This document shows, in pieces, positions 31,227 through 50,612 of a stretch of DNA of 64,000 nt. Below the pieces are notes generated by a model. The model was not told the DNA's origin. It did no database searches and worked only from the letters and a program-made list of their open reading frames with translations. The stretch spans positions 36,658 through 100,657 of the forward strand of contig CASEKC010000005.1 of assembly GCA_949288485.1 (NCBI GenBank), given 5' to 3'. The DNA comes from an uncultured bacterium (GTDB taxonomy: Bacteria; Bacillota_I; Bacilli_A; RFN20; CAG-826). How positions within the stretch are numbered: position 1 is the first letter of the stretch; each line of letters starts with the position of its first letter. The position numbers and the translations under genes are program-made.

Positions 31227-31538
31227 TTAATCAGAAAAATATTCTTTTTTTATTTTGTTATAGCATTTCATTTTTAAAACAAAATACATCTTAAAAGCTT
31301 TTAATTCTTCGTATTCATTTTTTGTTAATAAAACAGAGTCATCATTAGGTATAACAATATTTTCGATATTTACGTTATAAATTTCGGCAAGCTTAGTAAG
31401 CGTATCAATCGATGGTTCACTAACACCATTTTCATATTGACTTAAAGTGTTAGGTGCAACATTGATCAATTTAGCAACATCTTTAGCGCTAAACCCTTTA
31501 GCTATTCTTATTTCAGATAACATCTTATAATTCTTCAT
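31227..31538 (-). CDS. XRE-family HTH protein, array unit 5
   Basis: MKNYKMLSEIRIAKGFSAKDVAKLINVAPNTLSQYENGVSEPSIDTLTKLAEIYNV... Its start overlaps the stop of unit 4 by 14 nt. Confidence 0.75.
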   Translation of the reverse strand: MKNYKMLSEIRIAKGFSAKDVAKLINVAPNTLSQYENGVSEPSIDTLTKLAEIYNVNIENIVIPNDDSVLLTKNEYEELKAFKMYFVLKMKCYNKIKKEYFSD

Positions 31539-31842
31539 TTATTTCTGCTCCCTTATTTGTTTTTAAACACATGCAGACTCTTGAAAGAAAAATATTAAAT
31601 TGAATAAGTAGATTTATATCATCTTCAGTTAAAGTTATTTGCTTTCCTTCGCCATTAACAATAAAGTCTAAACTAACATGAAACATTTGAGCTAATTTTG
31701 CTAAAACATCGATTGATGGTTCAGCTTTTCCTCTTTCATAACAGCTAATAGTTGAATTATCAAAATTTAGTTTTTCTGCAACTTCCTTAGCTGTTAGTTT
31801 TTGTTTTTTTCTTAATTTAGCTAGTATTTTATAATTCTTCAT
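31525..31842 (-). CDS. XRE-family HTH protein, array unit 4
   Basis: MKNYKILAKLRKKQKLTAKEVAEKLNFDNSTISCYERGKAEPSIDVLAKLAQMFHV... It has 14-nt overlaps with the genes on both sides. Confidence 0.75.
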   Translation of the reverse strand: MKNYKILAKLRKKQKLTAKEVAEKLNFDNSTISCYERGKAEPSIDVLAKLAQMFHVSLDFIVNGEGKQITLTEDDINLLIQFNIFLSRVCMCLKTNKGAEINEEL

Positions 31843-32143
31843 TAGTTAATTTCTCCTTAATTTTAAGTAACTGTAATTTGTCGATTAAAACGAAAGCAAA
31901 TTTTTCAATTATATCTATTTCTTCATTGGTGAAAATAATACTTTTATCTTCTTTTAAAAGTAAATAATTTAAACTTACACCATATATCCCGGCCATTTTT
32001 ATTAAAGTATCTATAGATGGTTCATAAACACCATTTTCATATTCACTCATTAAGGATTGAGAAAAATTTAACTTTTTAGCAACATCTTTAGATTTTAATT
32101 TTTTCTTTAACCTTAATTCTTTTAATATCTTATAATTTTCCAT
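31829..32143 (-). CDS. XRE-family HTH protein, array unit 3
   Basis: MENYKILKELRLKKKLKSKDVAKKLNFSQSLMSEYENGVYEPSIDTLIKMAGIYGV.. Confidence 0.75.
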   Translation of the reverse strand: MENYKILKELRLKKKLKSKDVAKKLNFSQSLMSEYENGVYEPSIDTLIKMAGIYGVSLNYLLLKEDKSIIFTNEEIDIIEKFAFVLIDKLQLLKIKEKLTNEEL

Positions 32144-32154
32144 TTTTTACCTCT

Positions 32155-32460
32155 TTATTCTTTAAAAGATAATTTAGTATTTAAATTTAAAAATACATTT
32201 AATAGAAAATTAGATATTTTTAAAAATGATTCAATTTCTTCATTTTTAAACGTGATATTAAATTCTTGACCACTAATAAGATAATCGATACTAACTTTAT
32301 AAATTTTAGATAAATTTAAAAGTGTATCAATTGATGGTTCTCTTAGACCTGATTCATAATTCATTAAAGTGTTATAAGAAACACCGATTCTATTAGATAC
32401 TTCTTTAGCGGAAAGATTTTCTCTTTTCCTTATTTCTTTTAAATTTTTATAATTCATCAT
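32155..32460 (-). CDS. XRE-family HTH protein, array unit 2
   Basis: MMNYKNLKEIRKRENLSAKEVSNRIGVSYNTLMNYESGLREPSIDTLLNLSKIYKV.. Confidence 0.75.
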   Translation of the reverse strand: MMNYKNLKEIRKRENLSAKEVSNRIGVSYNTLMNYESGLREPSIDTLLNLSKIYKVSIDYLISGQEFNITFKNEEIESFLKISNFLLNVFLNLNTKLSFKE

Positions 32461-32500
32461 TAAAAAATAATCTCCTTTTAAAGTAAATATTTATTGTCTT

Positions 32501-32788
32501 TTAGTTAATATGTTTTTTCTTTAACTCTAAAATAAACTCACTTATTTTTATTAAGTTATTAAATTCTTGAGATGAAATTGTTATTTCATCTCTATTACCT
32601 AATACTAAATAATCAATTGATACATTATAAATTTTTGCTAATTTAGCTAATGTATCAATTGGTGGTTCATTTATTCCTCTTTCATAAGAACTTAAAGTTG
32701 TAGGATCAATATTTAAAAGTTTTGCTACATCTTTAGCTTTTAAATTTCTTTCTTTTCTTATTAAAGAGAGAATTTCATAATTTTCCAT
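32501..32788 (-). CDS. XRE-family HTH protein, array unit 1, cut off from its upstream region by the IS
   Basis: MENYEILSLIRKERNLKAKDVAKLLNIDPTTLSSYERGINEPPIDTLAKLAKIYNV... Its first six codons lie inside the 28-bp target duplication of the IS. Confidence 0.75.
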   Translation of the reverse strand: MENYEILSLIRKERNLKAKDVAKLLNIDPTTLSSYERGINEPPIDTLAKLAKIYNVSIDYLVLGNRDEITISSQEFNNLIKISEFILELKKKHIN

Positions 32789-32800
32789 TTTAATTATTAG

Positions 32801-34369
32801 TGTGAATATCCATTTAAATTGTCAGTAAAATAAAGATAAGTTATTCATTTAATTTGTCAGTATTTTTATCAATATTATTCAATTGTTTGGATTTTTTGTT
32901 AAGAAAAAGTTTATACATGTCCGTTCTCCATGGTGTGTATTTTTGTTTATTAAACTCTTTAATAATTTTTGAGTTTTCTGCAAATGAACTTCTTTCTAGC
33001 TTGTAAGTATTTGGGGATGCATAATTTAAATAATCAAGTGGCATATCATTTACTTTGAAAGCTCTGAAAATTGTACCATCAACAGAAATATATTTTGTAT
33101 CATTTAAAGCAATTATAAACATACATTGTGTTTTCGGTTTTATGGTTCTTATAAATTTAGTTTCCCCGTTTGAATTTGCTATTCCCGGTAAATATTTTTC
33201 ACCTTCAAAAGAAATTGTCCCAGCTTTATCAAACGATCTAATAAAACAAATGGATAATGCTAAATTTGCATCATCTTCTGTTAATTTTGGTCTATATAAA
33301 TTTTCTGAACATTTTTTGTTACCAAATAATTTATTCATTTCAGGCAGGAATTTATTGATAATAAATTCATTTGCATCATTTAAATTTTCAATCTTTTTTT
33401 GATGTAATTCTGCGCATAATCTTCTTTGAAAAGTTCCGTTTGCTCTCTCTATAATCGCTTTCTTTGTTGGAAGACTTGTTGTTTCAAGATGAATATTTAG
33501 ATTTCTTAATGCGTATTCTATTTGCACATGACCATTAGAAGTAATTGTGTCTTTTTTACATTTTGTAGAAACAAAACATGATCTATTATCTGTTAAGATA
33601 TTTTCCGGTAAACCATAATTTAAAAAAATTTGTTTTAAAACAATATAATATGCTTTTGTTGTTTCTTGATAATCTAAAATTGCACCAACAAATGTACCGG
33701 TACATACGTCAATTGCAAGATGCAAATGTGTTTTAATATCACCAAAAAAAGTAGCAGATGAAGCATCCATTTGTATTAAAAAACCAGCCTTATCACCTTT
33801 AGGAATTCTATTTGTTGGCTTTTCGACAATGAAAATATTAAAATCTTGTAAAGGCTGCTTCTCATTTTTATCAGATTTAAGGATTGAGTTGGCGGCTTTT
33901 TTAGCATTTCGAATAGTTTTCTTTTGTACATATGGCGAGTAGACATCATCACTTTTTAATATTCGATATAAAGATGCATAAGATATTTTAATGTTTTTTT
34001 CTGAGTCTAATTTTTCTTTGAAATGTTGAATACTAAATCCTAAATATTCATTCTTAAATAAATTAACTATGCATTTTGCATTAAATTTTGACCCTTTTTT
34101 CCTAGGTACTTTTAACAAGGACTTTGCTCCTTTCTCAACATATTTTTTATATTTACGAAAAAATGTTCTCTCGCTACAGCAAAGTTCTTCAGCGGCTTTT
34201 TTTGATGAAATTGACTTTTTTTTATACATTTCAAAAGTAGTTATTGCATCAAAATCTTTGGCCGAAAATTTAAATTCATCCATTTAAAACCTCCATATAA
34301 TTAAATTAATAATTATACTGACATTTTAGATGAATAACTTTTACTGACATTTTCAATGAATACCCACAT
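32801..34369 (-). mobile_element. Complete IS element of about 1.57 kb, IS1202-group (ISNCY)-like, with imperfect terminal inverted repeats and a 28-bp target site duplication
   Basis: The left end is tgtgaatatccatttaaattgtcagtaaaa. The right end, reverse-complemented, is tgtgggtattcattgaaaatgtcagtaaaa. The direct repeat tttcataattttccattttaattattag occurs at 32773-32800 and 34370-34397. TGT ends and 27-28-bp duplications are the described hallmark of the IS1202 group. Confidence 0.75.
32841..34283 (-). CDS. DDE (rve/integrase-core type) transposase of the IS
   Basis: 480 aa with an N-terminal HTH (..SSKKAAEELCCSERTFFRKYKKYVEKG..). The central region has D..D..E spacing (..LIQMDASS.., ..ILTDNRSCF.., ..IIERANGTFQRRL..). 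Confidence 0.75.
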   Translation of the reverse strand: MDEFKFSAKDFDAITTFEMYKKKSISSKKAAEELCCSERTFFRKYKKYVEKGAKSLLKVPRKKGSKFNAKCIVNLFKNEYLGFSIQHFKEKLDSEKNIKISYASLYRILKSDDVYSPYVQKKTIRNAKKAANSILKSDKNEKQPLQDFNIFIVEKPTNRIPKGDKAGFLIQMDASSATFFGDIKTHLHLAIDVCTGTFVGAILDYQETTKAYYIVLKQIFLNYGLPENILTDNRSCFVSTKCKKDTITSNGHVQIEYALRNLNIHLETTSLPTKKAIIERANGTFQRRLCAELHQKKIENLNDANEFIINKFLPEMNKLFGNKKCSENLYRPKLTEDDANLALSICFIRSFDKAGTISFEGEKYLPGIANSNGETKFIRTIKPKTQCMFIIALNDTKYISVDGTIFRAFKVNDMPLDYLNYASPNTYKLERSSFAENSKIIKEFNKQKYTPWRTDMYKLFLNKKSKQLNNIDKNTDKLNE

Positions 34370-37261: not shown

Positions 37262-38050
37262 ATGAAGAAGAACCTACATAAACTATTTGGAAATTGTCTT
37301 AATCGGATTAAAAATCTTTTCTTTTATAACAAATTTCTTTTTTGTTTTTTTGTTCTCTCTTTTGGTGCTATTATTTCATATATCTTGATTAAATGCTTTT
37401 TAAAAATATCTGATAATCAAATTTGGATTATCATAGATATAATAGGAAATATTTTTATCGCTTGCTTTTGCAGTTATATTTTTTTTATCTTCCAAATTTT
37501 TATACCAGAAGAAAAAAATAAAAACCTCATCAAAAAATCTTTTTATACGATATTGCTCGATGTTTCTAGATCTATGAAACAAATATTTGAAAACATTTTC
37601 TTTATTAGCAATAGAAAATTTGATACCGATAATTGCTCTCGCGAAATTTTTGAAGAAATATCGAAGAACTTAGATCTTTCTAAAAACTCAAATTTAGACA
37701 AGATTATTTATTATGATGGACAATCTAAATTGACTAAACTAGCTTTAAAAGAGGCACTTATTTATTATTCAAATAAAATCGATAACGATATTAATAAGGC
37801 ATTATTCATAGGTATTAAATTTATGGATACAGAAATAATTGCTTTATTAGAAAACATCTTAACATCAGAATTTCACCATTCTTTCTGTAAAGAAATTTTA
37901 AATTTTGTAGATGGAATTCCATTTAAAAATGAGCCAGCTATATTAGCTGAAATGATATTTTCATATTTTGAATTTTACAAAAAATTAGAAATTTTTGTTA
38001 ATCAAAGCAAAGTTTTTGCAAAAGCAAATCGGAAATATAAGAAATTATAG
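37262..38050 (+). CDS. Membrane-anchored hypothetical protein
   Basis: Two N-terminal hydrophobic segments followed by a soluble domain of about 180 aa. No motif recognised. Confidence 0.45.
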   Translation: MKKNLHKLFGNCLNRIKNLFFYNKFLFCFFVLSFGAIISYILIKCFLKISDNQIWIIIDIIGNIFIACFCSYIFFIFQIFIPEEKNKNLIKKSFYTILLDVSRSMKQIFENIFFISNRKFDTDNCSREIFEEISKNLDLSKNSNLDKIIYYDGQSKLTKLALKEALIYYSNKIDNDINKALFIGIKFMDTEIIALLENILTSEFHHSFCKEILNFVDGIPFKNEPAILAEMIFSYFEFYKKLEIFVNQSKVFAKANRKYKKL

Positions 38051-38280
38051 ATGACATTATTATTATTATTATTTATTCTTTACATTGGTAAATATATTTT
38101 GAATTTTTTATTTTATTTTGTTTTTATTTTTAAAAGTAATTAGATATATAAAATTAAAATAAAAATAAAGATATACAACCATTAAAAATCTATAATTTGA
38201 AATTATTATTACTTTTTAAAATTGAAATTTCTTTTACTTATTTAAAATGCAACTTTAAATTTTATTTTTTAATGTAATAT

Positions 38281-39615
38281 TTAATTTATATTTGAGTTTG
38301 AAAAATACCATTTAATCCATTTTAAAACTGTGCCTGCTCTTCTTTCCATCGTATTTTTTGCTAAATTGAGATTTAAATCTGAATTCATTCTTTTAATTAT
38401 TATTTCTTTTCTTTCTTTTGAACTTTCTATTTTTTTGCAGTCTTTTATACACGCACTAAAAAACGAATCGTTTTTTAAAGTAACTAAGATGCTTTCTTCA
38501 ATTAATTGTTTATTTTGGTTTAATTTTAAAGCTTTATCTGTCAGATTTTTACTAAAATCAGTAAATTGCAAATAATTTAAGGCAGATATGTAATAACTAA
38601 TTTGCCTTGGCTTTAATTTTAATTTTTTTTCTATTTCACTGGTATCGCCATTAAAGCCGTACTTAGAAAGAATTAGAAGTTTAACGATGGTATTTATATT
38701 ATTAGCTTGTGGGAAAGGAATAATTCTTGATAAACCAAAATAAATAACTTCATAACCAGTTTTTCTATATAATCCATTACAATTAATTGAACGCAAAGTG
38801 TGGTATCTATTTTCCTCATAATAAAGTGTATATCTGCGATCATCTGACATTAATTCTGAAACTTTTTTTGTCACGTTATTTGATATAATTACAGCACCTT
38901 GTCTAACTAAAACTTCGTCACACGCTTTTTTTAATTTTTTAAAATCATCAAATGTAAAACCATGCATTTGGTATTTTGTAAAACCATCATCATCTTCATA
39001 ATCATATGGTGGATCGGCGTATACTACATCTCCAAACACAGTATCTTTTAAAGAAAGTTCATAATCGGAATGTAAAATTTTAATATCATTAGTTTTATCT
39101 GATAAATATTTATGAATTTCTCTAATATTAACCTCATCACATATTTTAGGGTTTTTATAACGTCCTACTGGGGTATTAAATTGTCCATGAGAATTAACGC
39201 GATATAATCCATTGTAACAGGTTTTATTTAAAAAAATTAAACGTGCAGCTCTTTCAACATTATCATATTTTTCTTTCCGATTTTCCTCTCTGTCCCATTC
39301 TCTAATCATATAATAGTAATTTTCCGGACCGTCTTCATAGTTACGATATTTTTCCGCATGAATATGCAAAAGTTCGATTAATCGTTCATATTCATTCGAT
39401 TGAATAACTTTATATGCGTTAATTAAATCTTCGTTTATATCACTAATAGTTGCTCTTTTAGGTTTAAGCATAAAAAAAACAGCTCCACCACCTAAAAAAG
39501 GCTCATAATATCTCCGTTTAGGATTCTTATTAAGCTCTTTAGCTTTTTCTATAAATTCATTAATATACTCAAAAAGCCTTCTTTTTCCACCGGCCCATTT
39601 TACGAAAGGTTGCAT
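38281..39615 (-). CDS. Dam-family (D12 class) N6-adenine DNA methyltransferase with a C-terminal extension of about 150 aa
   Basis: N-terminus PFVKWAGGKRRL, AdoMet motif EPFLGGGAVFF, and catalytic motif DPPY (..VVYADPPYDYE..). The C-terminal 150 aa has no recognised motif. Confidence 0.8.
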   Translation of the reverse strand: MQPFVKWAGGKRRLFEYINEFIEKAKELNKNPKRRYYEPFLGGGAVFFMLKPKRATISDINEDLINAYKVIQSNEYERLIELLHIHAEKYRNYEDGPENYYYMIREWDREENRKEKYDNVERAARLIFLNKTCYNGLYRVNSHGQFNTPVGRYKNPKICDEVNIREIHKYLSDKTNDIKILHSDYELSLKDTVFGDVVYADPPYDYEDDDGFTKYQMHGFTFDDFKKLKKACDEVLVRQGAVIISNNVTKKVSELMSDDRRYTLYYEENRYHTLRSINCNGLYRKTGYEVIYFGLSRIIPFPQANNINTIVKLLILSKYGFNGDTSEIEKKLKLKPRQISYYISALNYLQFTDFSKNLTDKALKLNQNKQLIEESILVTLKNDSFFSACIKDCKKIESSKERKEIIIKRMNSDLNLNLAKNTMERRAGTVLKWIKWYFSNSNIN

Positions 39616-39624
39616 AGAAATAAC

Positions 39625-40380
39625 TTAACTGTTCTTATTATAATATTCAAGCATCTCTTTATACACTAATTCTTCAATATCTTCTTCGCTTATTGCATCT
39701 AATAATTGGACGCCGCCGATTTTATTAATAAATTTACTAATTTCAGGGTAAATTGATGTATCTTCGTAGCCTTTTTCATCAACGGCCTTTTTTTCGCCTC
39801 TTAGCATCCCCCTGACTAATTTCTTTTGAGAAGAAAATGATGACCGTGTTGCATTTCTATATCGCTCCACATTGTCAATTACCCATTTAGTTAATTCATA
39901 AGAGTCATTTACATTATTTTCGTCTACAGTTAAGTAAACTCTATAAAACATTCTACTTAAAATTCCAAACATAATGCCTCTTCGAACACCTAATTTAAAA
40001 TACCGATGATCAGAAATTGTTGTACTCCTTCTAATTTTCATACAAGTTTTAGAAAATTTATAAAATTTTTCAAATTCAAGCCAAAGCCAAAATCTTTCAT
40101 CACACAAAATATAATTAGGCAAATTTTTTAATGCATTATAAATTTTTAAAGAGTTCTCAAAATCAATTTCCTTATCCTTTGATTCTGGATTAATTTTTAG
40201 ATTAAAATCCTCAATTTTAAAAACTTTTTTTTGCAAATAATTTTTTGGAAAGGTTGTCTTTACCCAATCATTATCATCGTTATCAATTATTAATTGAGTG
40301 ATACTGCTTAAATTTTTCTTTAAAAATTCAGTTGCTTCATCACTAAATAGGTAAATATTAATTTGGTTACTAGTATTCAT
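39625..40380 (-). CDS. Hypothetical protein, operon member
   Basis: I prefer the start at the internal Met (MNTSNQINIYLF..), which is preceded by aaggag. This gives an 11-nt overlap with the upstream gene. No motif recognised. Confidence 0.5.
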   Translation of the reverse strand: MNTSNQINIYLFSDEATEFLKKNLSSITQLIIDNDDNDWVKTTFPKNYLQKKVFKIEDFNLKINPESKDKEIDFENSLKIYNALKNLPNYILCDERFWLWLEFEKFYKFSKTCMKIRRSTTISDHRYFKLGVRRGIMFGILSRMFYRVYLTVDENNVNDSYELTKWVIDNVERYRNATRSSFSSQKKLVRGMLRGEKKAVDEKGYEDTSIYPEISKFINKIGGVQLLDAISEEDIEELVYKEMLEYYNKNS

Positions 40381-41296
40381 CTTCGTTATCTCCTTTTTGT
40401 TTAAAAGTGTCTTGCAAATTATCAAAAGATTTCAAAAGTGGTGATTTAAAAATTATTTGCGCAAATTCAATTGGACTATATTTTAAAAATTCTTCTTTTG
40501 TTAAATCCTTGTTTGTCATTTTTTTATAAGAGTTTTCAACTGAAATAAACCATTTATAATTAGAAACAACATCATCTAAATCATAATTGAGATTAGATAA
40601 GCGTTCACTAATTTTTGTGAAAGATTGAGTTAACGTAGGAATTAAAAGTAAGCCGAAGAATAACTCTTTAAAATTATCGTGTTTATCAAGATAGTTATAA
40701 CTTTTATGAGCTTTTTTTGATAAATATATAAAAATCTTTCTACCTTCATCAGATACTCGATATGGAGAATCATCAGGAACATTTTCATCAGGAACAACTG
40801 CAAATATAGATTTAGAAACATTGTCTTCCTCTTCATAATGAATAACGTCGAAACTTATAGAATCGTCAGCACCTAAAATATCATATTTATCAATAAAAAA
40901 CTCTATTCCTTTATAATCATCTTTAACTTCATCGGTTATCAAAACAAAATCTTTTTTTGCATAAATAAATAATGATAAATATACTTTACCGTTTAGATTA
41001 TTTTTATCAAGAACTAGGGTTCTATTATCCAATTCAGAAAGCCAATAAGATTTTCTAAATATTGTTTGAGAACACTCAACAAGAATCAAAACATCTAAAC
41101 ACCCTTCTTTGTATTTATTCATTAAGTATTCGCTATCAGTATCTAAATCAATATTTTTAAAATAAATTGAGCTACTATTAACAGATTCTTCTTTTTCAAA
41201 TTGAATCAAAAACTTTTTATTAAAGAAGACATTATTAATTGGTGAATTTGTAATAATTGGATAAGGAAACAATCTATTCTTTAATCGCATAAACAA
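40370..41296 (-). CDS. Hypothetical protein, operon member
   Basis: 308 aa, overlapping the end of the GHKL ATPase gene. No catalytic motif recognised. Confidence 0.5.
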   Translation of the reverse strand: MFMRLKNRLFPYPIITNSPINNVFFNKKFLIQFEKEESVNSSSIYFKNIDLDTDSEYLMNKYKEGCLDVLILVECSQTIFRKSYWLSELDNRTLVLDKNNLNGKVYLSLFIYAKKDFVLITDEVKDDYKGIEFFIDKYDILGADDSISFDVIHYEEEDNVSKSIFAVVPDENVPDDSPYRVSDEGRKIFIYLSKKAHKSYNYLDKHDNFKELFFGLLLIPTLTQSFTKISERLSNLNYDLDDVVSNYKWFISVENSYKKMTNKDLTKEEFLKYSPIEFAQIIFKSPLLKSFDNLQDTFKQKGDNEDEY

Positions 41297-43199
41297 TCGC
41301 CTCCCCGCTAAAATAACTATTTTCAGTAGTTTTTATAATTAAAATTGATTTTTGAGCATTTATAATTTCAAATGGCCCATATTCATTATCGTTTGCAAAA
41401 TTGATATCAATTCCGTTAACATTTAAACTTAGAATCTTAACTTCCCTTTTAGAGCTTAAATCATCATCTATTTGTAAAAGTCTTAAGTAGCATTCTTTTG
41501 AAGATAAATTAGGAATGAAAGTAATCTTATAGGTTCCTTCAGTTTTATTTAGACAAATAAAGTTATAACGGACACCCTTTAAAGGAGCTTTCGAAATAAC
41601 AATATTTTCTCCATCACCTTTTCCACTTGAATCATCACCTGGATGATATCCTCCTCCTTTACTATTATTGTGAGATTCTGGATGAAGCGTTTCATCGTTA
41701 CCCTCTACAATTGAACCTTCATCAGGCATGAATCCTTCTGCGCCATCTTCTTCAATTTCTGGTTGAGTTTCTAAAACTTTGCTTCTTTTAATTTCTGTAA
41801 CTTTAATTTTGTCAGAAGACAACCCTTTTTCTAGACCATTAAAACTATCGCCCTCATCATTTGCCGCTAAAAATTCTCCGGCACCATTAGGATCAATTTC
41901 AGAATTTTTATCTAAATCGAAACAACTCTCAACATCTTTTTCAATTTCTTTCTCTATATTATCCAAAATATTTTTAATTTGTCTTTTTTCAGTATTTTCT
42001 AATCTATTAACTTCCCAATCAATATGCTGTGGATTTTCGATTTCTAGAAGTTTTCTGCCTAGTTCATTATCGCCAATAATGCAAGCTCCTGACCAATTTA
42101 GATTTTCTAATCTTTTTATATCTTTAATTTTCATAAATGGCGTTCTAATCATAGCGCATCTATGGGTAGCATATTTTTTATCAACATCTTTGTATACTGA
42201 TATAAATAAATTTAAATCTCCTAAATCAGTTTCAATTACAAAACTTCTTACATCCCCTTCTCCAATTAATGTTTTATATAAAGAAAGTAAATAATCTTTC
42301 TTGTTTTGATTAATAAGATAGCTTTTATCAAAAATATTTTTTAAATTTGAAGAATTAATTAAAAAATTGTTAATTTTAATATTCAAGTCATTTTTAATTA
42401 TCGCATACATAAATGATTCTATAATACTTGTGAGTACTTCTTTTGCCCATTCATTATCGTCTTTAAAATCAATAATATATATATCTGTTCCAAAATCATT
42501 ACCTCTTGTAAAATTTTTATCAAAATTAAATGATTCATAAACTGGATTTATGTCATCATCAGAAGAAAAATATCCTTTACCTTGTGTATAATCTCCTGAG
42601 CCATCATTTGCCGAACCTGTTATTAAATCTGCGACCCCCATATAGCCTCTGAAACCATCTTTTGTATAGGTAGAATAAAAAACCATATTAAAACCAGATA
42701 GCAAAAAAGCCGCATTTTTTCCAACGCCTTTTGATCCGCCAGATAATTTCGTATCTTTATTAGAAACACCAGTAGATTTTGTTAATGCCTTAAATTTGTT
42801 ATTAGGTTTAGATAAATTTTCAACACCTATTAAGCCTGTTGTATTAAAATCAGATATTCTTAAACATTTTATTTTCTTATTTTCTTGAAGTTTTTTTAAT
42901 ATCTTTCCATATTCTTTTTGATAAGATTGCACTTCTTTCCAATAATCAATACAATTTTTAATTGCGTTTTTAAAGCCAGTTATATCAGGAATATCATTTA
43001 GATTTACATTAAACAAATTAAAATCGACAACTATAGGTTCATCGTTTTTCAAACGAGCATCAAGCGAATTTTGAACAATTTCTCTGCCAAAATTGGCATA
43101 AGGATTTTTCTTAAAAGTTTCAACATCCCCAGTACTTATACCTCTAACTTGCCCTCTATTACTTAATGGAAAGCGCCATTCTATTTTGTTTTCGCTCAT
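41274..43199 (-). CDS. GHKL-superfamily ATPase (MORC/paraMORC/Hsp90-like Bergerat fold)
   Basis: N box REIVQNSLDA (aa 39-47), a G1-like ISDFNTTGL (aa 115-123), and a G2-like GGSKGVGKNAAF (aa 154-165). There is a long middle region and an acidic, Gly-rich linker near aa 470-540. Confidence 0.65.
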   Translation of the reverse strand: MSENKIEWRFPLSNRGQVRGISTGDVETFKKNPYANFGREIVQNSLDARLKNDEPIVVDFNLFNVNLNDIPDITGFKNAIKNCIDYWKEVQSYQKEYGKILKKLQENKKIKCLRISDFNTTGLIGVENLSKPNNKFKALTKSTGVSNKDTKLSGGSKGVGKNAAFLLSGFNMVFYSTYTKDGFRGYMGVADLITGSANDGSGDYTQGKGYFSSDDDINPVYESFNFDKNFTRGNDFGTDIYIIDFKDDNEWAKEVLTSIIESFMYAIIKNDLNIKINNFLINSSNLKNIFDKSYLINQNKKDYLLSLYKTLIGEGDVRSFVIETDLGDLNLFISVYKDVDKKYATHRCAMIRTPFMKIKDIKRLENLNWSGACIIGDNELGRKLLEIENPQHIDWEVNRLENTEKRQIKNILDNIEKEIEKDVESCFDLDKNSEIDPNGAGEFLAANDEGDSFNGLEKGLSSDKIKVTEIKRSKVLETQPEIEEDGAEGFMPDEGSIVEGNDETLHPESHNNSKGGGYHPGDDSSGKGDGENIVISKAPLKGVRYNFICLNKTEGTYKITFIPNLSSKECYLRLLQIDDDLSSKREVKILSLNVNGIDINFANDNEYGPFEIINAQKSILIIKTTENSYFSGEAIVYAIKE

Positions 43200-43201
43200 A
43201 A

Positions 43202-43420
43202 TTAAATCCTTACCTTCTTTTTCTTTTTATTATTATCAATTAATTTTTGTTCGGTTTTTTTAGAAACACTATAAATTTGATTGAATATTTCCTTTATTTC
43301 TTCATCTGTATATTCATAAAAAGAAGAATTTGTTAAATTCTCCAACTGTTCAATAGTAGAAATAATTTTTTCTAATCGGTTCTGGGATATACGTTTGAAG
43401 TTATTCCTTTTATTTTCCAT
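43202..43420 (-). CDS. Small helical protein, first gene of the operon
   Basis: 72-aa ORF whose stop lies 2 nt before the GHKL gene start. It has a Lys-rich C-terminus. Confidence 0.4.
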   Translation of the reverse strand: MENKRNNFKRISQNRLEKIISTIEQLENLTNSSFYEYTDEEIKEIFNQIYSVSKKTEQKLIDNNKKKKKVRI

Positions 43421-43488
43421 AACAAAATAATAGTAAAAATTAGAATCATTGTCAAATATTTTAAAAATATTATTAAAATATTTTAAAA

Positions 43489-44241
43489 TTATTTTAAATA
43501 ATCTTTTAGAAAAAACTCGTATAGACTTGTTATTCCTTTATAAATTTTAATTTTTTTTCTTGTTTCGATGCCAGCTGTTATATATCTATTTTCAAGGAAA
43601 GTATAAAATTTTTTAATATAATTTTTAAAAATTAGCAAATCATCAATAACTATAAAATTGTTGTATCCACTTTTATTAGATAAATGTTTTTCATATAAAT
43701 AATTTGCGTTCAAAAGAACTTTTTCTGCTGTATTAGCTTTTTCTTGATCATAGCCTTTTGAAAACATTAAAAATCCTTTAAAATCATCTAATCTTTCTTT
43801 AGTAACTAATTCAATTACATCTTTTGGTTCAGTATCAGGCAATCGATGAATAATAAACTCGCAATTTTCCAAATCAATATTCCGAGCCTTCAATAATAAT
43901 TGAATAGTCCAAACAGAATGAAGAGCTGTATTATTCAAGTTAATATAAACATCATAAGCAAAAAAGGCGTGATTACTTTTTGGAGTTACAGTAAAAAGTT
44001 CTTGTTTTCCCCAATCTACTTTTATGTCAAGCAAATCATTTCTATCTTTTTGATTATTTTCAAATAAATATTTCGCCAAATTAAATAATAGGCTGGTCCA
44101 TTTTGTATCGTTAAATACTTTACTGCCAATCCTCAACTTATAAGGGGTAGTATTTTCAAAATTATATTCCTTAATTTTTAAATCTATTTTATAAAATCTT
44201 TTTTTGCCAAGAAAAACTAAACTATTTGGTAATTCATTCAT
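43489..44241 (-). CDS. Hypothetical protein
   Basis: 250-aa ORF between the AbiH gene and the GHKL operon. No motif recognised. Confidence 0.45.
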   Translation of the reverse strand: MNELPNSLVFLGKKRFYKIDLKIKEYNFENTTPYKLRIGSKVFNDTKWTSLLFNLAKYLFENNQKDRNDLLDIKVDWGKQELFTVTPKSNHAFFAYDVYINLNNTALHSVWTIQLLLKARNIDLENCEFIIHRLPDTEPKDVIELVTKERLDDFKGFLMFSKGYDQEKANTAEKVLLNANYLYEKHLSNKSGYNNFIVIDDLLIFKNYIKKFYTFLENRYITAGIETRKKIKIYKGITSLYEFFLKDYLK

Positions 44242-44385
44242 AAAAATATTTTATACCTTTAATTAAATTTGCTACAAAATATATTTTTATTTTACTTTTA
44301 TCAAATTATAACAAATATAATTGCAATAAAGGTGAAATCTATTAAAAAGTTTTAAATTAAAAAGAATCCTCAGCTTTTTTAATGT

Positions 44386-45159
44386 TTAAATTTTAAGTTT
44401 AATAATTTTATAAATTTCATCTTCTAATTTTAATTTCTTTTTATAATTTTCAGCAGCTTCTTTGTCTTTGTCACTATAATAATAAAAGTTCCATTTAAAT
44501 ATTTTTTTATAATTTGCTATATACTCAAAATAAGGGAAATCAATATTATTATAAGAAAACCCAATAACAGTGATTTCATCTGTTTGACTTAAAAATTCAT
44601 TTATTTTTTGTTTGTTTTGACTTAAAATTTTTTCGGTATTTTTAAAAGTTCTTTTCACTAAATCGCAATCATTTGCATTTATATTTTTATTATGCCCAAA
44701 AATAATATCATCTAAATCAAAAACAGCCATTCCAGCATTGCCGTGTATATGTATTACATTATTTTCATTTATTTCATAAATTTCTTCAAGTAGATTGGTG
44801 TAATTGAAAGTTAAAAAGTAATCTTCGGAAGTAAACGAATCTTTAAAAAAATTTTCACTTCTAGCATTGTTAATTTTTAAGGAAAGTACCCATTTTTTTA
44901 AAGATAGTTTTAGATTTTGAAGGAAACTATCTGTTATGTCGCTTTCAAAACATTTATAAAGAAATTCAATGGTTGTATATTTTGGATCGCCTAATGCTTC
45001 TTCAAAATTTGACCATAAAGTTTCTTCATCATAAAGATCCGACAATTTATCGGATACATCTTCATTATTCTTCTTTAAATAAGTTTTAAAATCTAAAAAT
45101 GTAGAATTTACGTTATGTGCAAGATCAAAACCATTGCCAATTATAAAAAGTTTGCTCAT
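44386..45159 (-). CDS. abiH: AbiH-family abortive infection protein
   Basis: The N-terminus MSKLFIIGNGFDLAHNVNSTFLDFKTYL and the later HIHGN fit the AbiH family signature. Confidence 0.65.
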   Translation of the reverse strand: MSKLFIIGNGFDLAHNVNSTFLDFKTYLKKNNEDVSDKLSDLYDEETLWSNFEEALGDPKYTTIEFLYKCFESDITDSFLQNLKLSLKKWVLSLKINNARSENFFKDSFTSEDYFLTFNYTNLLEEIYEINENNVIHIHGNAGMAVFDLDDIIFGHNKNINANDCDLVKRTFKNTEKILSQNKQKINEFLSQTDEITVIGFSYNNIDFPYFEYIANYKKIFKWNFYYYSDKDKEAAENYKKKLKLEDEIYKIIKLKI

Positions 45160-45212
45160 ATAAAATAATTTATTTTTTTCGATAATTTTGAAATATTTGT
45201 GTTTAATTTTAG

Positions 45213-45580
45213 TTTATTTTATCATCCTAATTCTCCCATTCTTTCTTCTCTTAATTCTGAAGGAGTTTTCTTATCATTTACTTTTCTCATCATGGCATAG
45301 GATTGAATTGCTTTCCAGCCAGTTACTTTAACAACCAAAAGAATTCATTGACATTATTTCACCATTATAAGAAACATGTTTTTCATCAACTATAGTAGCT
45401 ATTTCATTAGGATGAGATATAACGTATATCTCATCTCCTATTTTAATAAGACCTTCTTTAATCATCCAATCGTATTTAGGTAAAGAAGTAAAATTTTTTT
45501 GTTCTTATTTCTTCTGTTTCGTCTCCGTTTTTTATCGCTTTAAATGAAGGCTCAACTAAAATTAAGTTTTCTTCTAATCC
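45213..45580 (-). pseudogene. Degenerate duplicate of the 3' half of the GIY-YIG/DUF4357 gene
   Basis: About 370 bp aligns with 47537-47905 with scattered substitutions and indels that break the frame. Confidence 0.65.
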
Positions 45581-45637: not shown

Positions 45638-47407
45638 TTACACCTCAAACGTAAAGTTATCTACTTCCCCATTTCCATATAAATATACTGAGCATGAAAA
45701 CTGATTTTTAATTAACCATTTAAAGGATTTAACACTAAAAAGTTTGACTGTTTGACTCGTGTTGCTCACAAGCGTAAGTTGAAAATTCAATTCATTCGTT
45801 TGAGAATGGCTGACCTCAAAATAATAATCTTCATTTGGACTATATTGAGCAGGCGTTGGCAAATACCGTGATAATTTTTGGCCATCGTCATCTTGGTACC
45901 AACTAAAATTAAAGGATTCATTACTACATTTTGCGCCGAAAAGAATGTAAGGTAGAGATATTTTATTTATATACTTATCAAAATTCCGTAATTTTGAAGA
46001 ATTTCCAGTAATATACAAATAATTTATGAGTTCTCTGTTTGAAGAAGAAATTCCTTCGTCCATATTCTCTAAATTCTCAAATTGAGACTTATCCCGAGTA
46101 ATTTTAGGAATATAAGTTTTAACATAATCAAAATCACTCATAATTTTTAAAGCAGATTTATAATCATAAGATATATTATTTAATAAATAGGTTATTCTAT
46201 CATTTTGTTCGCTTTCACCCACAAAATTTGCTATTTCATTTTTTAAAAGGTAATAATTAGAAGCGTTAGTATATTCGTTATAAATATCTTCTAAGTCATA
46301 ATGTCCATCTACAATCGACATTAAATATTCTATTTCATAATTATAATCAGATACATCGCCATTACTAGGATTATAATTATATACCATATTAAGCAATTTT
46401 ATATAGTAATCATAAATTTTCTCTTGTGTTTGTTTATTATTAAAATAAATAATAGGTGCAGTTATTACCAGCGAAATACAACCAATAGATAATATAATAA
46501 GAGATGCTTTAGCGATATCATTTATTCTTTTTTTCTTAACTATATCATTGTTTAAATTATCGATGTCTTTTATTAATTTATTATATTCCTCTTCAGAGCT
46601 TACTAGGATAAGGTCTTCTTGTATTTTTTTTATTCTGTTTTCAAAAATTACTTTATTTTTTTTGTTAAGACTTTTTAAGTCTATTTTTTTATTAAAATAG
46701 TATTTTTCTGCCTTATCCTTAAAGTTAATTTTAACAAGTCGTTCTTCTTTTTTAATTATTTCGTTTTCAATTTTCGTTTTGCTAGATTCGGACTTAATAC
46801 TGTTTTCATTTTGTTCTATAGAAAATACGTTTACTTTTTGGGATTCAGACCCAAATTTAGTATTAAAATCATCATCTTTTAAAATTAAAATTAATATACC
46901 ACCTATAAAACTTACGAAGAAAAGACTCAATATTCCAGTTACAATTAATTTATTTAAGTTATTTGTTTTTTTACAGGATTTTAAAGATATTATGCATAAC
47001 GGTATATTTATTAGATATAATAACAATCCTAAATAACTTAAATAGTGACCATTTGTTAAACCGAATATCGATCCGCAAAATGCAATCGGACTTAAAACAC
47101 ATCCTATAATTTCCCAAATTTTTATAGTTAAATATTTTTTCGGATTTAAAGTCTTTATTGATTTAGTTTCCTTTTGTTTGCTTTTCATTTCATTATCTGG
47201 GTTTTGAAAATCTATATCTTTTAGTAAATAATCTAAACTAACATTCATTGCGTTGCTTATTTTAACTATTGTTTCGAGATTTGGAACAATTTTGTCTGAT
47301 TCCCAATTTCTTACTTCTTCATCATTTATATTCAATAAATTTGCAAGAGCATTAATTGAAATATTTTTGTTTTGTCTAATATTAGCGATTTTTTCCCCAA
47401 ATGTCAT
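45638..47407 (-). CDS. XRE-HTH protein with central transmembrane segments and a large C-terminal domain
   Basis: N-terminus MTFGEKIANIRQNKNISINALANLLNINDEEVRNWESDKIVPNLETIVKISNAMNVSLDYLL. There are hydrophobic segments around aa 95-175 and aa 300-320. The C-terminal 270 aa is unassigned. Confidence 0.6.
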   Translation of the reverse strand: MTFGEKIANIRQNKNISINALANLLNINDEEVRNWESDKIVPNLETIVKISNAMNVSLDYLLKDIDFQNPDNEMKSKQKETKSIKTLNPKKYLTIKIWEIIGCVLSPIAFCGSIFGLTNGHYLSYLGLLLYLINIPLCIISLKSCKKTNNLNKLIVTGILSLFFVSFIGGILILILKDDDFNTKFGSESQKVNVFSIEQNENSIKSESSKTKIENEIIKKEERLVKINFKDKAEKYYFNKKIDLKSLNKKNKVIFENRIKKIQEDLILVSSEEEYNKLIKDIDNLNNDIVKKKRINDIAKASLIILSIGCISLVITAPIIYFNNKQTQEKIYDYYIKLLNMVYNYNPSNGDVSDYNYEIEYLMSIVDGHYDLEDIYNEYTNASNYYLLKNEIANFVGESEQNDRITYLLNNISYDYKSALKIMSDFDYVKTYIPKITRDKSQFENLENMDEGISSSNRELINYLYITGNSSKLRNFDKYINKISLPYILFGAKCSNESFNFSWYQDDDGQKLSRYLPTPAQYSPNEDYYFEVSHSQTNELNFQLTLVSNTSQTVKLFSVKSFKWLIKNQFSCSVYLYGNGEVDNFTFEV

Positions 47408-47537: not shown

Positions 47538-48230
47538 CTATTTTATCATCCCTAATAATCTCATTCTTTCTTCTCTTAATTCTGAAAGAGTTTTTTTATC
47601 ATTTACTTTTCTCATCATGGTATAGGATTGAATTGCTTTCCATCCTGTTACTTTACAGCCAAACGAATTCATCGACATAATTTCACCATTATAAGAAACA
47701 TGTTTTCCATCAACTATAGTAGCTATTTCATTAGGATGAGATATGACACATATCTCATCCCCTATTTTAATAAGACCTTCTTTTATCATCCAATCAAATT
47801 TAGGTAAAGAAGTAAAGCTTCTTTTAGTTCTTATCTCTTCTGCCTCTTCTTCATCTTTTATTTCTTTAAAAGAAGGCTCAACTAAAACTAGGTTTTCTTC
47901 TAATCCATTAATTTGAGCAATTGTTTCTAAAATAGAATAGGCATCAGAAGGAGACATATTATAAAATTCTCTTTTTCTTGTTTTCCCATCAAATTCTTCA
48001 ATACTTCTTAAATTAGGATTAAGTTTATCAATCATTTGATGAAGTTTCATATCACTAAGTCTTTTAGGCACCTCATAATATGCATAAAGCCTAAAAGCAA
48101 AAGGAATACATTCACTTCTATTAAGTTCTTTAAGCCTTTTATTTACATCGTCCGCATAGCCTATCTTCACATAGTCTGGGAATGATGGGTTGGTAAGTAT
48201 GTAGATTACGCCTTGTGTTTTAGATTCCAT
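47538..48230 (-). CDS. GIY-YIG domain protein with a DUF4357-like C-terminus
   Basis: N-terminus GVIYILTNPSFPDYVKIGYADDVNKRLKELNRS... It is adjacent to the type III R-M genes, a common association. Confidence 0.65.
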   Translation of the reverse strand: MESKTQGVIYILTNPSFPDYVKIGYADDVNKRLKELNRSECIPFAFRLYAYYEVPKRLSDMKLHQMIDKLNPNLRSIEEFDGKTRKREFYNMSPSDAYSILETIAQINGLEENLVLVEPSFKEIKDEEEAEEIRTKRSFTSLPKFDWMIKEGLIKIGDEICVISHPNEIATIVDGKHVSYNGEIMSMNSFGCKVTGWKAIQSYTMMRKVNDKKTLSELREERMRLLGMIK

Positions 48231-48233
48231 AGA

Positions 48234-50612
48234 TTAGTTGTTTCCCATTTCTTCGGCTAATTTTTTTAAATATTCTGCATTATGAACATTTGTATCGACG
48301 CTTCTTAAAATTTCATTAAAATTAATCCAGTTTTCTCTAGATTCACCATAGTCATGATATTCAAGTTGATCGTAGTAATAGAATTGAGTACCGCTCTTTA
48401 CAACTATTCCACCTATTACCTTAGGCGCGTGCCCTCTATTTTGGTTGATGTTTGTTAAATATCTGTGCAAAGCTTCAGCCTTAACCTTAGTATCATCAAC
48501 ACGTTGACCTATTCCTTTTGTATCAAATATACCAACTGTGCCATCTTTAAATTTAACAAAAAAATCGGGTTGAAATGTATTTAATTCACCATTATAGGCT
48601 ATACCAAAATTAACTCTCATCAATTCAGGTCCATTTTCCCAATACCACTCAACCTCATCAGAACGGTCTAAATAACTCAAAAAATCAACTTCAAGTTGAT
48701 TAATATGGCCCGTGGTGGTATCTTTAGCCACAAATAAAGGCTGGTATAGAGATTTAGAAGCAACAATAGCTTCATGCGTTTCTAAAGAATAACTTCTCTT
48801 ATTTTCTATCTTAAAGTCATAATGTTCGCTTTGTTTTCCTTTGCCGGCAACCAAAATATCTCTGAATTTTTGAGTAGCTTCATTTAATAATTCTGCAAAA
48901 ATGTTAGAATTATTAACTACTATTCTTTGTATAACACCAACTTTTGTGCTTCTAGGAAAGACATCATAAAATTTAGTAAAAGTTGTAATAATTGCTGAGT
49001 TAATGACTGGCTTAGAACGAATAAACGCTAATCCATTAAGATTACTTCTTATTAAATCATAATATTGAGCTATTACATCAGTATCGGACATTTTTACTTG
49101 AACAGTTTCATTTAGTACTTTTTGCTCATTATCAATCGTTGCAGAAGCTACTTGCGTTTCTTGAATCATCATATCATTAGTACGAGTGCTTAAATCAAGT
49201 CTCTTAGCTTCTAATTTCAATTCATTTTGAGCATATATACCATATTTTTCATCTTCAGTAAAACGAAAGAAGTCCATAAAAACTTTTTCATATATTGCAT
49301 AAAAACGTGAATCAGCAGAATTATAGTTTCCCTGCCTAGAACGATAAAATGATTTTAGCTGCGTTTGCTCCCAAACTCTAAGCTTAGTATAAGGTTTTCT
49401 AAAATAAGAAGTTTCAGTTTTAATTCTATTAGGTGAATAAGTTTCACGGCGAGTCTCAAAATCTTTAATATTTGTATAAATATAAGCGCTATCTAATAGT
49501 TCGTCATTGTAAGATTTAGCTTCAGCTGTGCGTAGAATTCTACCTATGGTTTGAATTTCAAAAGTTTCTGACTTTCCATCTCTAAATTTGACTAGTATTT
49601 GAGCACGAGGGCAATCCCGACCAGTAGCAACGGCAGTTTTAAAAACTAAATAATCAGTTATATCATCAAGTTTTCTTATAGCTTTTTTATCAAAATTGCC
49701 TTTATCATCACACCAAAACTTAAGTTTGCCATTTTCTTCAGTAATCCCTTTATCATTAAGAAAATCTGTAATTACTCTTTTCTTATCTTCGCCTGCATCG
49801 GTATTTGGTATTTGTATTAACATAAGGGGATTAACTATCGAGCCATAGCTTTCATATTTCTTTTTTAATTCTTCTCTTTTAGCAAAAGCTTTCTCTAATA
49901 CAATGTTTTCAGATTCTTTTTCTTCTAAAGATCGATCTTTCCTACTAATGCCTTCATTTACGATAACATCAACTTTAATCATTCCTTCATCAATTACGTC
50001 TTGTGAATCTACTTCAACATCTGGCTCAGTTAAAGGAGTAGCAGACATTTCAATAGTGATTAATGGTTCAATAATTGTATCTTTAAATTCCTTTATCCTT
50101 GCATTTGCATTGGCACCAATATGTGATTCGTCAACTAAAAGAACTAAATTAATTCCTTCATTTCTAGTATTTTCTAAAACGTTGACAAAGTTTAGGCCTT
50201 CTTGATCTTTCATTAGATTGTTTTTCCACTTGCCGGTTGGTTTATCTTTATCTACTAATTTTTCCCAGTTAACAAAAACAATCTCTTTATTATGAATGTC
50301 TTTTCTTGTTCCAAAAAACTCATCTTCTAATAAAGAACAAACTGGATCTCCTCCTAAATACTCGTTAACTGCATTAAACGATTGTTTATGAAGTTCACCT
50401 TTACCAGGACAAGCCCAAACAACACAAAATCTATCTGTATCATTTTCTTCAGTTACTTCTTCAAAAAGAGCAGAAATCATAAACGTTTTACCACTACCAG
50501 TAGGAGCTTTAAAAACAATCTTTCCTTTGCTTTTTTCATCAAGCAAAAGAGTTAATCTACTTTTTAATTTATCAACAGCAGTTCTCTGATAATTTTTTAA
50601 TGGATACTTCAT
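48234..50612 (-). CDS. res: Type III restriction enzyme, Res subunit
   Basis: Helicase motif I APTGSGKT, motif II VDESH, and a C-terminal nuclease-like segment ..FQPDFFVKFKDGTVGIFDTKG... Confidence 0.8.
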   Translation of the reverse strand: MKYPLKNYQRTAVDKLKSRLTLLLDEKSKGKIVFKAPTGSGKTFMISALFEEVTEENDTDRFCVVWACPGKGELHKQSFNAVNEYLGGDPVCSLLEDEFFGTRKDIHNKEIVFVNWEKLVDKDKPTGKWKNNLMKDQEGLNFVNVLENTRNEGINLVLLVDESHIGANANARIKEFKDTIIEPLITIEMSATPLTEPDVEVDSQDVIDEGMIKVDVIVNEGISRKDRSLEEKESENIVLEKAFAKREELKKKYESYGSIVNPLMLIQIPNTDAGEDKKRVITDFLNDKGITEENGKLKFWCDDKGNFDKKAIRKLDDITDYLVFKTAVATGRDCPRAQILVKFRDGKSETFEIQTIGRILRTAEAKSYNDELLDSAYIYTNIKDFETRRETYSPNRIKTETSYFRKPYTKLRVWEQTQLKSFYRSRQGNYNSADSRFYAIYEKVFMDFFRFTEDEKYGIYAQNELKLEAKRLDLSTRTNDMMIQETQVASATIDNEQKVLNETVQVKMSDTDVIAQYYDLIRSNLNGLAFIRSKPVINSAIITTFTKFYDVFPRSTKVGVIQRIVVNNSNIFAELLNEATQKFRDILVAGKGKQSEHYDFKIENKRSYSLETHEAIVASKSLYQPLFVAKDTTTGHINQLEVDFLSYLDRSDEVEWYWENGPELMRVNFGIAYNGELNTFQPDFFVKFKDGTVGIFDTKGIGQRVDDTKVKAEALHRYLTNINQNRGHAPKVIGGIVVKSGTQFYYYDQLEYHDYGESRENWINFNEILRSVDTNVHNAEYLKKLAEEMGNN

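Follow-up and report, generated by a model that had tools for sequence, protein, structure and literature searches.

A PDC-M33 candidate defence locus with a conserved small first gene, operator-like palindromes and a linked adenine methyltransferase in an uncultured bacterium of the RFN20 lineage

Does a compact operon that combines a putative ATPase with an adenine methyltransferase, and in which no nuclease or helicase is apparent, represent a defence system, and to which type would it belong? This question is raised by positions 38,281 to 43,420 of a 64,000-nucleotide stretch of contig CASEKC010000005.1 (assembly GCA_949288485.1) from an uncultured bacterium of the GTDB lineage RFN20; the whole stretch is referred to as the window. 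An initial annotation had proposed a five-gene methylation-linked defence system of a novel type. Profile matches and gene order identify the locus as a six-gene, extended form of the candidate defence cassette PDC-M33 in PADLOC. Its three central proteins are abbreviated A, B and C (PDC-M33A to PDC-M33C), the small first gene is designated S72, and the gene upstream of it UP250.

The five tightly packed minus-strand open reading frames (ORFs) of the initial annotation were all recovered in place. S72 (72 aa, 43420>43202) is the first gene of the operon and is separated by a 2-nt gap from A (641 aa, 43199>41274), which overlaps B (308 aa, 41296>40370) by 23 nt, or by 17 nt with a start of B at ATG 41290. 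The latter is the probable start, because the homologues of B begin with MQLK. B and C (251 aa, 40380>39625) overlap by 11 nt, and a 9-nt gap separates C from the last gene, a methyltransferase of 444 aa (39615>38281) that is composed of a Dam domain and a DUF7226 tail. UP250 (250 aa, 43489..44241, minus strand) is a co-directional sixth gene without recognised domain, located 68 nt 5' of S72. The G+C content is about 25% across the whole window, and every gene of the operon is uninterrupted under code 11.

The affiliation with PDC-M33 is based on matches along nearly the complete profiles. A corresponds to PDLC04582 (E 6.6e-133, residues 6-638 versus profile positions 3-625 of 627) and B to PDLC04583 (E 4.1e-47, residues 3-301 versus 1-286 of 289), and C is recognised by PDLC04586 (E 6.1e-42) as well as by the Pfam model PF19866 for DUF6339 (E 1.5e-37). 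The gene order A>>B>>C equals that of the cassette FAM_02818>>FAM_02838>>FAM_01881, i.e. PDC-M33, and the PDC-M33A model was matched by all 44 diverse homologues in our alignment of A, which show 25-42% identity to the window protein. PDC-M33, listed as cassette CAS_00129, occurs 98 times in RefSeq v209 and belongs to 145 phage defence candidates that were obtained from genes located within BREX, DISARM and type I restriction-modification (R-M) systems ("guilt-by-embedding"; Payne et al. 2024, bioRxiv 10.1101/2024.01.29.577857). The cassette is defined as three genes; S72 with its operator, UP250 or an alternative accessory protein (BIG), and the methyltransferase lie outside this definition (bioRxiv 10.1101/2024.01.29.577857).

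How much of the proposed novelty persists? The statement that the gene set fits no named system is true of every characterised system in PADLOC. The window proteins have no match to the BREX, DISARM, Dnd/Ssp, Mza, Hma or MADS models and hit only those of PDC-M33 and generic methyltransferases, and the 44 homologues of A likewise lack matches to these characterised systems. It does not hold for the core, whose three proteins were assigned by full-length matches to PDC-M33. Two of the three proteins in which no motif had been recognised, those of 308 and 251 aa, are accordingly PDC-M33B and PDC-M33C, the latter representing DUF6339; only the 72-aa protein matches nothing. The novelty of the core is thus reduced, because it is a catalogued candidate already. 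A literature search found no paper naming PDC-M33, DUF6339 or DUF7226. As far as we found, the new elements are the near-universal S72 with its operator, the modular linkage to methyltransferases, the shuffling of DUF7226, and a DUF6339 protein without known structural relative.

Is the gene arrangement conserved beyond the window? In a synteny survey of 80 genomic loci (given by their L numbers where needed), A, B and C are contiguous in all 69 loci with enough downstream flank. This arrangement is far beyond chance and bears out the predicted conserved operon. S72 is located 5' of the core in 52 of the 59 loci with enough upstream flank. UP250 is conserved directly 5' of S72 in the closest relatives; homologues of about 250-290 aa occupy this position in L001, L002, L004, L012 and L058, and in L003, L009, L010 and L066 a homologous sequence makes up the N-terminal half of larger proteins (470-510 aa). 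It has no match in Pfam, PADLOC or NCBIfam, and it is probably the sixth gene of the system. The accessory gene varies between loci. Some harbor BIG (about 840-935 aa) between S72 and A, a protein whose sole recognised feature is a sigma-70 region-4-like helix-turn-helix (HTH) and which shows weak similarity (E 1e-5 to 1e-6) to the HTH region at the C-terminus of MzaA. Others contain an accessory protein of about 480 aa 5' of S72; its N-terminal half corresponds to the 250-aa form of the window and its C-terminal half is homologous to the C-terminus of BIG. A relationship between UP250 and BIG themselves was rejected (hhalign probability 0.3%). Many loci carry none of the three accessory forms, and S72 was not found by a hidden Markov model search in the Anaeroplasmataceae clade, which has A-B-C only, thus indicating that the minimal system is A-B-C, usually together with S72. 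The chromosome of Mycoplasmopsis adleri (L010, code 4) carries UP483, S72, A, B and C, which are intact only if TGA is translated as tryptophan; no adjacent methyltransferase was detected in this locus.

Is the methyltransferase a regular partner of this core? The loci were grouped by an A identity of at least 70% into 36 clusters, five of which had an undetermined status, leaving 31 that could be evaluated. A methyltransferase is located within 2.5 kb of the core in 27 of these 31 clusters. It is co-directional at operon distance in 20 clusters, namely 3' of C in 13, 5' of S72 in three and as an upstream pair of methyltransferase and restriction endonuclease (REase) in four. The Dam-DUF7226 fusion is the partner in the window and about 10 clusters; other partners are Dam with a 430-aa REase (PDLC03513), a distant D12 enzyme, a convergent C5 enzyme and a complete DpnII system. 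HsdMS represents a further kind of partner that is seen among the more distant A homologues (25-29% identity). The link to methyltransferases is strong and modular, and it is not obligatory in cis.

The methyltransferase of the window was correctly annotated as a D12-class enzyme with an extra C-terminal domain. Its Dam/DpnM-like N6-adenine methyltransferase domain (about residues 1-292; 38740..39615, minus strand) scores above the cut-offs of PF02086 (E 5.5e-50, 170.9 bits, cut-off 22) and TIGR00571 (221.9 bits, cut-off 114.85), and both the FLGGGA motif for S-adenosylmethionine (AdoMet) and the catalytic DPPY motif are intact. The nearest solved structure is the GATC-specific DpnM (2dpm, E 1.1e-54), followed by E. 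coli Dam (E 7e-25). The domain is thus closest to DpnM, and on account of this likeness the enzyme is probably GATC-specific. GATC is depleted in the 64-kb window (99 observed versus 175 expected, observed/expected [O/E] 0.57; maximal-order Markov expectation for the whole window), which is expected in a lineage exposed to GATC-directed restriction. The O/E of CATG is 0.51, whereas most other 4-bp palindromes range from about 0.8 to 1.0, with the exceptions of CGCG (0.31, 5 versus 16) and of GCGC and CCGG (about 1.3). The depletion of GATC and CATG is consistent with restriction acting on these sites now or in the past.

The C-terminal tail of the enzyme, initially described as unassigned, is the Pfam domain DUF7226 (PF23871, residues 324-440, E 4.3e-14; 38296..38646, minus strand). 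In other loci DUF7226 forms the C-terminal part of a type II REase of 430 aa with the architecture DUF6996-DUF6997-DUF7226 (PADLOC REase_II, PDLC03513), which is paired with Dam, and the match of the window methyltransferase to PDLC03513 covers the DUF7226 part only (residues 299-438). Compared with this R-M pair, the operon of the window carries DUF7226 as part of the methyltransferase and lacks the nuclease domains. The Pfam and PADLOC models found an REase domain in none of the six proteins, and the locus hence lacks the cognate REase of a classical type II R-M system. In L011 and L023, DUF7226 is even encoded as a separate ORF of about 155 aa. Its invariant residues PQ(A), RQ..YY and T..RR.ST..W are kept in all contexts, which is indicative of a functional module. 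Judged from these comparisons, DUF7226 is a module of a type II R-M family that was moved onto the methyltransferase with loss of the nuclease domains. A role as dedicated A-B-C adaptor was ruled out by stand-alone Dam+REase pairs on small plasmids; a plasmid search with the DUF7226 tail alone gave no match. A weak AAA_assoc_C match and the labels of annotators suggest that DUF7226 may bind DNA. The best result of its PDB profile search was a non-significant resemblance (E 0.12) to a conserved helix of type I HsdS, and the corresponding search with the REase returned nothing significant. In RefSeq plasmids, the DUF6996-DUF6997-DUF7226 REase is mislabelled as "translation elongation factor" or "AAA-associated domain-containing protein" (L086:3995-6284; H21, H22, H23).

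What is the role of the small first gene? S72 is the most conserved protein of the set, with the consensus K.ENFKRIAENR.NKII..L.NLSN.SFYEYTD.QI..IF.AI...KKRFEL. It belongs to no known family in Pfam, PADLOC or NCBIfam and has no PDB profile match, and neither the family scans nor the PDB profile search detected an Xre-type HTH or another recognised DNA-binding domain. The region 43427..43495 (minus strand) comprises a promoter and operator-like palindromes. With a score of 11/12, the combination TTGACA-17-TATTAT (-35 at 43455-43450, -10 at 43432-43427) is the top promoter-like site in 37900-45400, and its position within the spacer between UP250 and S72 indicates that the five genes have their own promoter. 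The -10 element ends only 7 nt 5' of the S72 ATG, so that the mRNA of S72 would be nearly leaderless. Copies of the 21-mer AAAATATTTGACAAATATTTT occupy 43442-43462 and 43464-43484, and a further match (43475-43495) overlaps the latter. These three are the only matches with at most three mismatches in the 64-kb window, all of them at 43442-43495, compared with 0.28 expected by chance, and none of 100 shuffled windows reached three.

The alignment of the DNA 5' of S72 revealed the underlying 11-1-11 palindrome CAAAATATTTG-A-CAAATATTTTG, whose centre is the -35 element TTGACA; a second copy is often located just upstream of the first. The palindrome is present 5' of S72 in 44 of the 66 S72-bearing loci. 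Within 1.31 Mb of sequence, 72 of 106 matches fall within 160 nt of the 5' end of S72, a zone that makes up about 1.6% of the sequence, which corresponds to an enrichment of about 40-fold. The loci L070-L080, which have the most divergent S72, carry another sequence upstream. Another copy of S72, likewise preceded by this palindrome, is the first gene of a DpnM-DpnA-DpnII R-M operon (L071:13682-16549) that is convergent with the S72-A-B-C operon, thus indicating that S72 and the operator can also serve an ordinary R-M system. An occurrence of the palindrome before methyltransferase genes was not supported, since only three such matches were found. The controller (C) proteins of type II R-M systems are small regulators with C-box operators. 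S72 shares with such modules its size and position as first gene, a palindromic operator over the -35 element, the conserved pairing of both and the occurrence before an R-M operon. Based on this anatomy of operator and small first gene we infer that S72 would be a dimeric, controller-like autoregulator acting through the palindrome. Unlike the C proteins, it has no recognised Xre-type HTH, and its DNA binding is a prediction.

Is A a GHKL ATPase, as the initial annotation had read from its motifs? The quoted motifs are present on invariant columns of the 44 homologues, whereas the searches for related folds stay below significance. The invariant positions coincide with the N box (E40/Q43/N44/D47/A48), the G1 box (S116/D117/T120/G122), the G2 box (G155/G158/G160/K161) and the G3 box (G237-T238-D239). 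G1 reads DxNTxG in comparison with the usual DxGxG, and it follows the N box at a spacing of about 73 residues. The window protein has no significant Pfam match. HATPase_c_3 appears below threshold in seven of the 44 homologues (best E 0.0049), with no other family in more than two, and the single match that was inspected covers the G1 and G2 boxes in the correct register. The hhalign comparison of three A profiles with E. coli MutL aligned the N box only (16-17 columns, probability at most 8%), PDB profile searches with three A alignments gave nothing significant, and a scan of the 44 homologues showed no relation of A to any other PADLOC defence ATPase. The motifs make it likely that A is a divergent GHKL (Bergerat-fold) ATPase. 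A pair E388xxxH392 after the ATPase region is at least 90% conserved in the 44 homologues. From its N- to its C-terminus, the protein would consist of an ATPase, a middle domain with E388xxxH392, an acidic and glycine-rich linker (about 440-535) and a beta-rich domain. A belongs to a large family, whose representative clusters (50% identity) number 4,458 at E<=1e-3 and 1,540 at E<=1e-30.

The remaining core proteins were compared by structure prediction. The AlphaFold2 (AF2) model of B (predicted score in the local distance difference test [pLDDT] 78, predicted TM-score [pTM] 0.46) consists of an N-terminal beta-sandwich followed by a C-terminal helical bundle, and Foldseek against the PDB retrieved generic FN3/Ig-like matches alone (TM about 0.2). 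The model of C (pLDDT 90.5, pTM 0.88) is mainly helical with a small N-terminal sheet and found no structural match with Foldseek (best E 1.2 versus PDB and 0.83 versus BFVD). PDB profile searches with B and with C gave nothing significant. The conserved residues are P11-Y12-P13, E74-C75, R81, Y128, F133, S163-I-F165, W249 and Q280 in B and N23, W39, N76, W98, R134, R143 and D228 in C; among them, no PD-(D/E)xK, HNH, GIY-YIG or similar pattern was seen in about 70 sequences of each protein.

How does the locus compare with known systems? BREX and DISARM are methylation-based defence systems with interchangeable methyltransferases and without a simple REase. The locus resembles them as a multi-gene operon with a methyltransferase that would mark self DNA, an ATPase, proteins without assigned function and no obvious nuclease, and also in the varying methyltransferase family. 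Unlike BREX and DISARM, its gene set contains no PglZ, BrxC, PglX, DrmA, DrmB or DrmC according to PADLOC, its ATPase is a putative GHKL rather than a P-loop enzyme, and the system is much smaller. With Mza, Hma and MADS it shares the combination of a methyltransferase with an ATPase; unlike these, the window has no BIG, no Z1 domain and no helicase, and A, B and C hit none of the respective models. The paraMORC2 proteins are a Gram-positive family in R-M neighbourhoods with an ExxxH in the C-terminal portion of the S5 domain, which follows the GHKL domain (PMC2292703). By description, A resembles them in its Bergerat-type motifs, in its methylase and REase neighbours and in E388xxxH392; a relationship with paraMORC2 is a lead. 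Typical members of the operons of MORC and paraMORC proteins are SF-II helicases as well as nucleases of the RE-fold or HNH type (Iyer, Abhiman and Aravind 2008, PMC2292703). The gene set of the window differs in having neither an SF-II helicase nor an RE-fold or HNH nuclease.

The neighbourhood of the operon is a defence-rich island, as initially proposed. It comprises AbiH (44386-45159), a 589-aa protein with an N-terminal HTH_3 domain and hydrophobic segments (45638-47407), a T5orf172/MUG113 protein (47538-48230) and a type III-like pair of a ResIII helicase (48234-50612) and an N6_N4 methyltransferase (50616-52331). An AbiH homologue was not found beside the UP250 homologues in other loci. 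Comparable surroundings are known from plasmids with more distant cores (A 25-29% identity). On a conjugative plasmid of L. lactis the core is located between an AlwI-family R-M system and AbiGI/GII, and on megaplasmids of L. salivarius it directly follows HsdS-HsdM. The order in L083:4603-15920 and L085:6606-18441 is HsdS, HsdM, an 80-aa hydrophobic ORF, A, B, C, an MmeI-like methyltransferase, a DEAD/DEAH helicase and a GIY-YIG nuclease. For the 9 kb around the L. salivarius loci, the PLSDB gene tables, which omit pseudogenes, list no HsdR; the core may here be embedded in a larger composite system or substitute for HsdR. The hosts of PDC-M33 comprise gut Firmicutes, Mollicutes and dairy lactococcal plasmids. 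A phage-borne system was rejected on the basis of only two partial matches in 50,697 phage records. The loci L070 and L072-L079 harbor S72-A-B-C with a convergent C5 methyltransferase of about 540 aa, and their A proteins are at least 70% identical across distant phyla (the assemblies bear the labels Bacteroidaceae, Pseudoflavonifractor, Phascolarctobacterium, Faecalibacterium, Streptococcus and Spirochaetales). An identical arrangement is seen in L080 (Syntrophomonas), which forms a separate cluster. The spread of L070/L072-L079 suggests either a broadly mobile gut element or binning contamination.

Two other regions of the window are conspicuous. Six tandem co-directional paralogous genes for proteins of about 95-105 aa are arranged with short overlaps at 31227-32788 (and 30944-31213), followed by an 89-aa ORF. 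A scan of one member identified it as an Xre-type HTH_3 protein, whose N-terminal sequence recurs in the others. This array of six near-identical small regulators is unusual and is located just downstream of an rve-family transposase gene (32841-34283). At 28830-30353, a lipoprotein-like 507-aa protein with collagen-like GDKGP/GxxG repeats near the N-terminus has a C-terminal Endonuclease_1 domain (E 2e-23) and looks like a secreted or surface nuclease.

How might the PDC-M33 locus function? The chances are about even that it represents a methylation-linked defence against phages and plasmids. The DpnM-like methyltransferase, predicted to be active, would mark host DNA at GATC sites. A dimer of A, driven by ATP binding and hydrolysis, would act with B and C on incoming unmodified DNA, and S72 would set timing and level of operon expression through the operator. 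The effector step might reside in B or C, as a nuclease whose fold is not recognised, or in A, at its ExxxH site; alternatively, the DNA might be blocked without degradation, as in BREX. A more specific proposal, which we put forward tentatively, regards S72-A-B-C as a restriction cassette that is portable and mechanistically of a new class. Its GHKL-clamp complex, composed of two folds that lack known relatives, would use the adjacent methyltransferase (Dam, C5 or HsdMS), discriminate methylation without a canonical nuclease or helicase and have its own controller and operator.

Several observations weigh against a methylation-linked defence. PDC-M33 is among 145 candidates that are stated as untested (bioRxiv 10.1101/2024.01.29.577857), and the GHKL fold of A found no statistical confirmation in the Pfam, PDB profile and hhalign searches. 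In agreement with the initial annotation, which had seen no obvious nuclease or helicase, family (Pfam, PADLOC, NCBIfam), PDB profile and Foldseek searches detected no nuclease, helicase or effector domain in A, B, C, S72 and UP250. The methyltransferase is convergent or divergent, hence not operonic, in seven clusters, and four clusters with ample flanks have none nearby, in a survey limited to phmmer seeds for three methyltransferase classes (D12, C5 and N6_N4). The methyltransferase-less clades have housekeeping neighbours such as PolC, an MiaB-like enzyme and a glycosyltransferase, and it is these core-only clades that show methylation not to be obligatory in cis. The linkage to a methyltransferase is real in most clades (27 of 31 clusters) and is lacking in four. 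Finally, Dam+REase(DUF7226) pairs occur free-standing on small plasmids with no PDC-M33 core nearby.

Some of these points would also be explained by two independent modules, i.e. an autonomous S72-A-B-C system that requires no DNA modification, for instance of an infection-sensing or abortive type, and a solitary methyltransferase or leftover type II R-M half that shares location and transcription with it solely owing to the clustering and joint exchange of defence genes, a possibility that we take seriously and yet regard as the less probable outcome. Apart from the core-only clades with housekeeping neighbours and the same Dam+REase pair alone on small plasmids, it would account for the varying position and orientation of the methyltransferase (downstream, upstream, convergent, divergent) and for the complete R-M pairs (Dam+REase, DpnII) that flank the core in several loci, and what defines the candidates of the PDC catalogue is their embedding in other systems rather than a functional link. 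However, independent modules are difficult to reconcile with a co-directional methyltransferase at operon distance in 20 of 36 clusters and a 9-nt gap or overlap in the clade of the window, or with a linkage that spans at least five unrelated methyltransferase families. The Dam-DUF7226 fusion without REase keeps its invariant residues in clades whose A is 40-48% identical to that of the window, and this retention across divergent clades is indicative of selection rather than decay. The S72 copy that also heads the R-M operon of L071 argues in the same direction.

The recurrent R-M neighbours could alternatively mean that A-B-C is an accessory to conventional R-M, either an ATP-driven activator or loader of a latent endonuclease, comparable to MutL with MutH, or a guard that senses inhibition of the neighbouring R-M system or methyltransferase and elicits a back-up response. 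In many loci the core has HsdMS or a complete R-M system (Dam+REase, DpnII or AlwI-family) beside it, the layout of A as read from its sequence is MutL-like (ATPase, long linker, C-terminal domain), no nuclease was found inside the core, and a MutL-like action has been proposed for GHKL proteins in R-M neighbourhoods (PMC2292703). This explanation is nevertheless improbable, given that the window and about 10 related clusters have a methyltransferase only and no REase, that several clades have neither, that no MutH/Sau3AI-like or other latent nuclease was detected in the REase-less loci, and that the MutL similarity of A is confined to the N box. Least probable of all, and in our opinion very unlikely, is a non-immune DNA-transaction module, organised around a methyltransferase and an ATPase, for example for epigenetic regulation, repair or element maintenance, mobile or chromosomal. 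It draws on the core-only loci among housekeeping genes, on the clade L070-L079 with the related L080, whose distribution across distant phyla suggests a mobile element, and on the missing effector domain. The repeated occurrence of the core in defence islands and defence-rich plasmids, the embedding of PDC-M33 in known defence systems, the patchy, laterally mobile distribution and the near-absence from phage genomes speak against it.

The present analysis adds four features to the three-gene entry PDC-M33, namely S72 with its operator, the methyltransferase link, the shuffling of DUF7226 and the lack of a recognisable nuclease. Should the link to methylation prove functional, the system would stand beside BREX and DISARM as a form of epigenetic immunity. 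With about 5 kb it is small enough for genetic dissection, and PDC-M33 may matter for the phage resistance of dairy starter strains.

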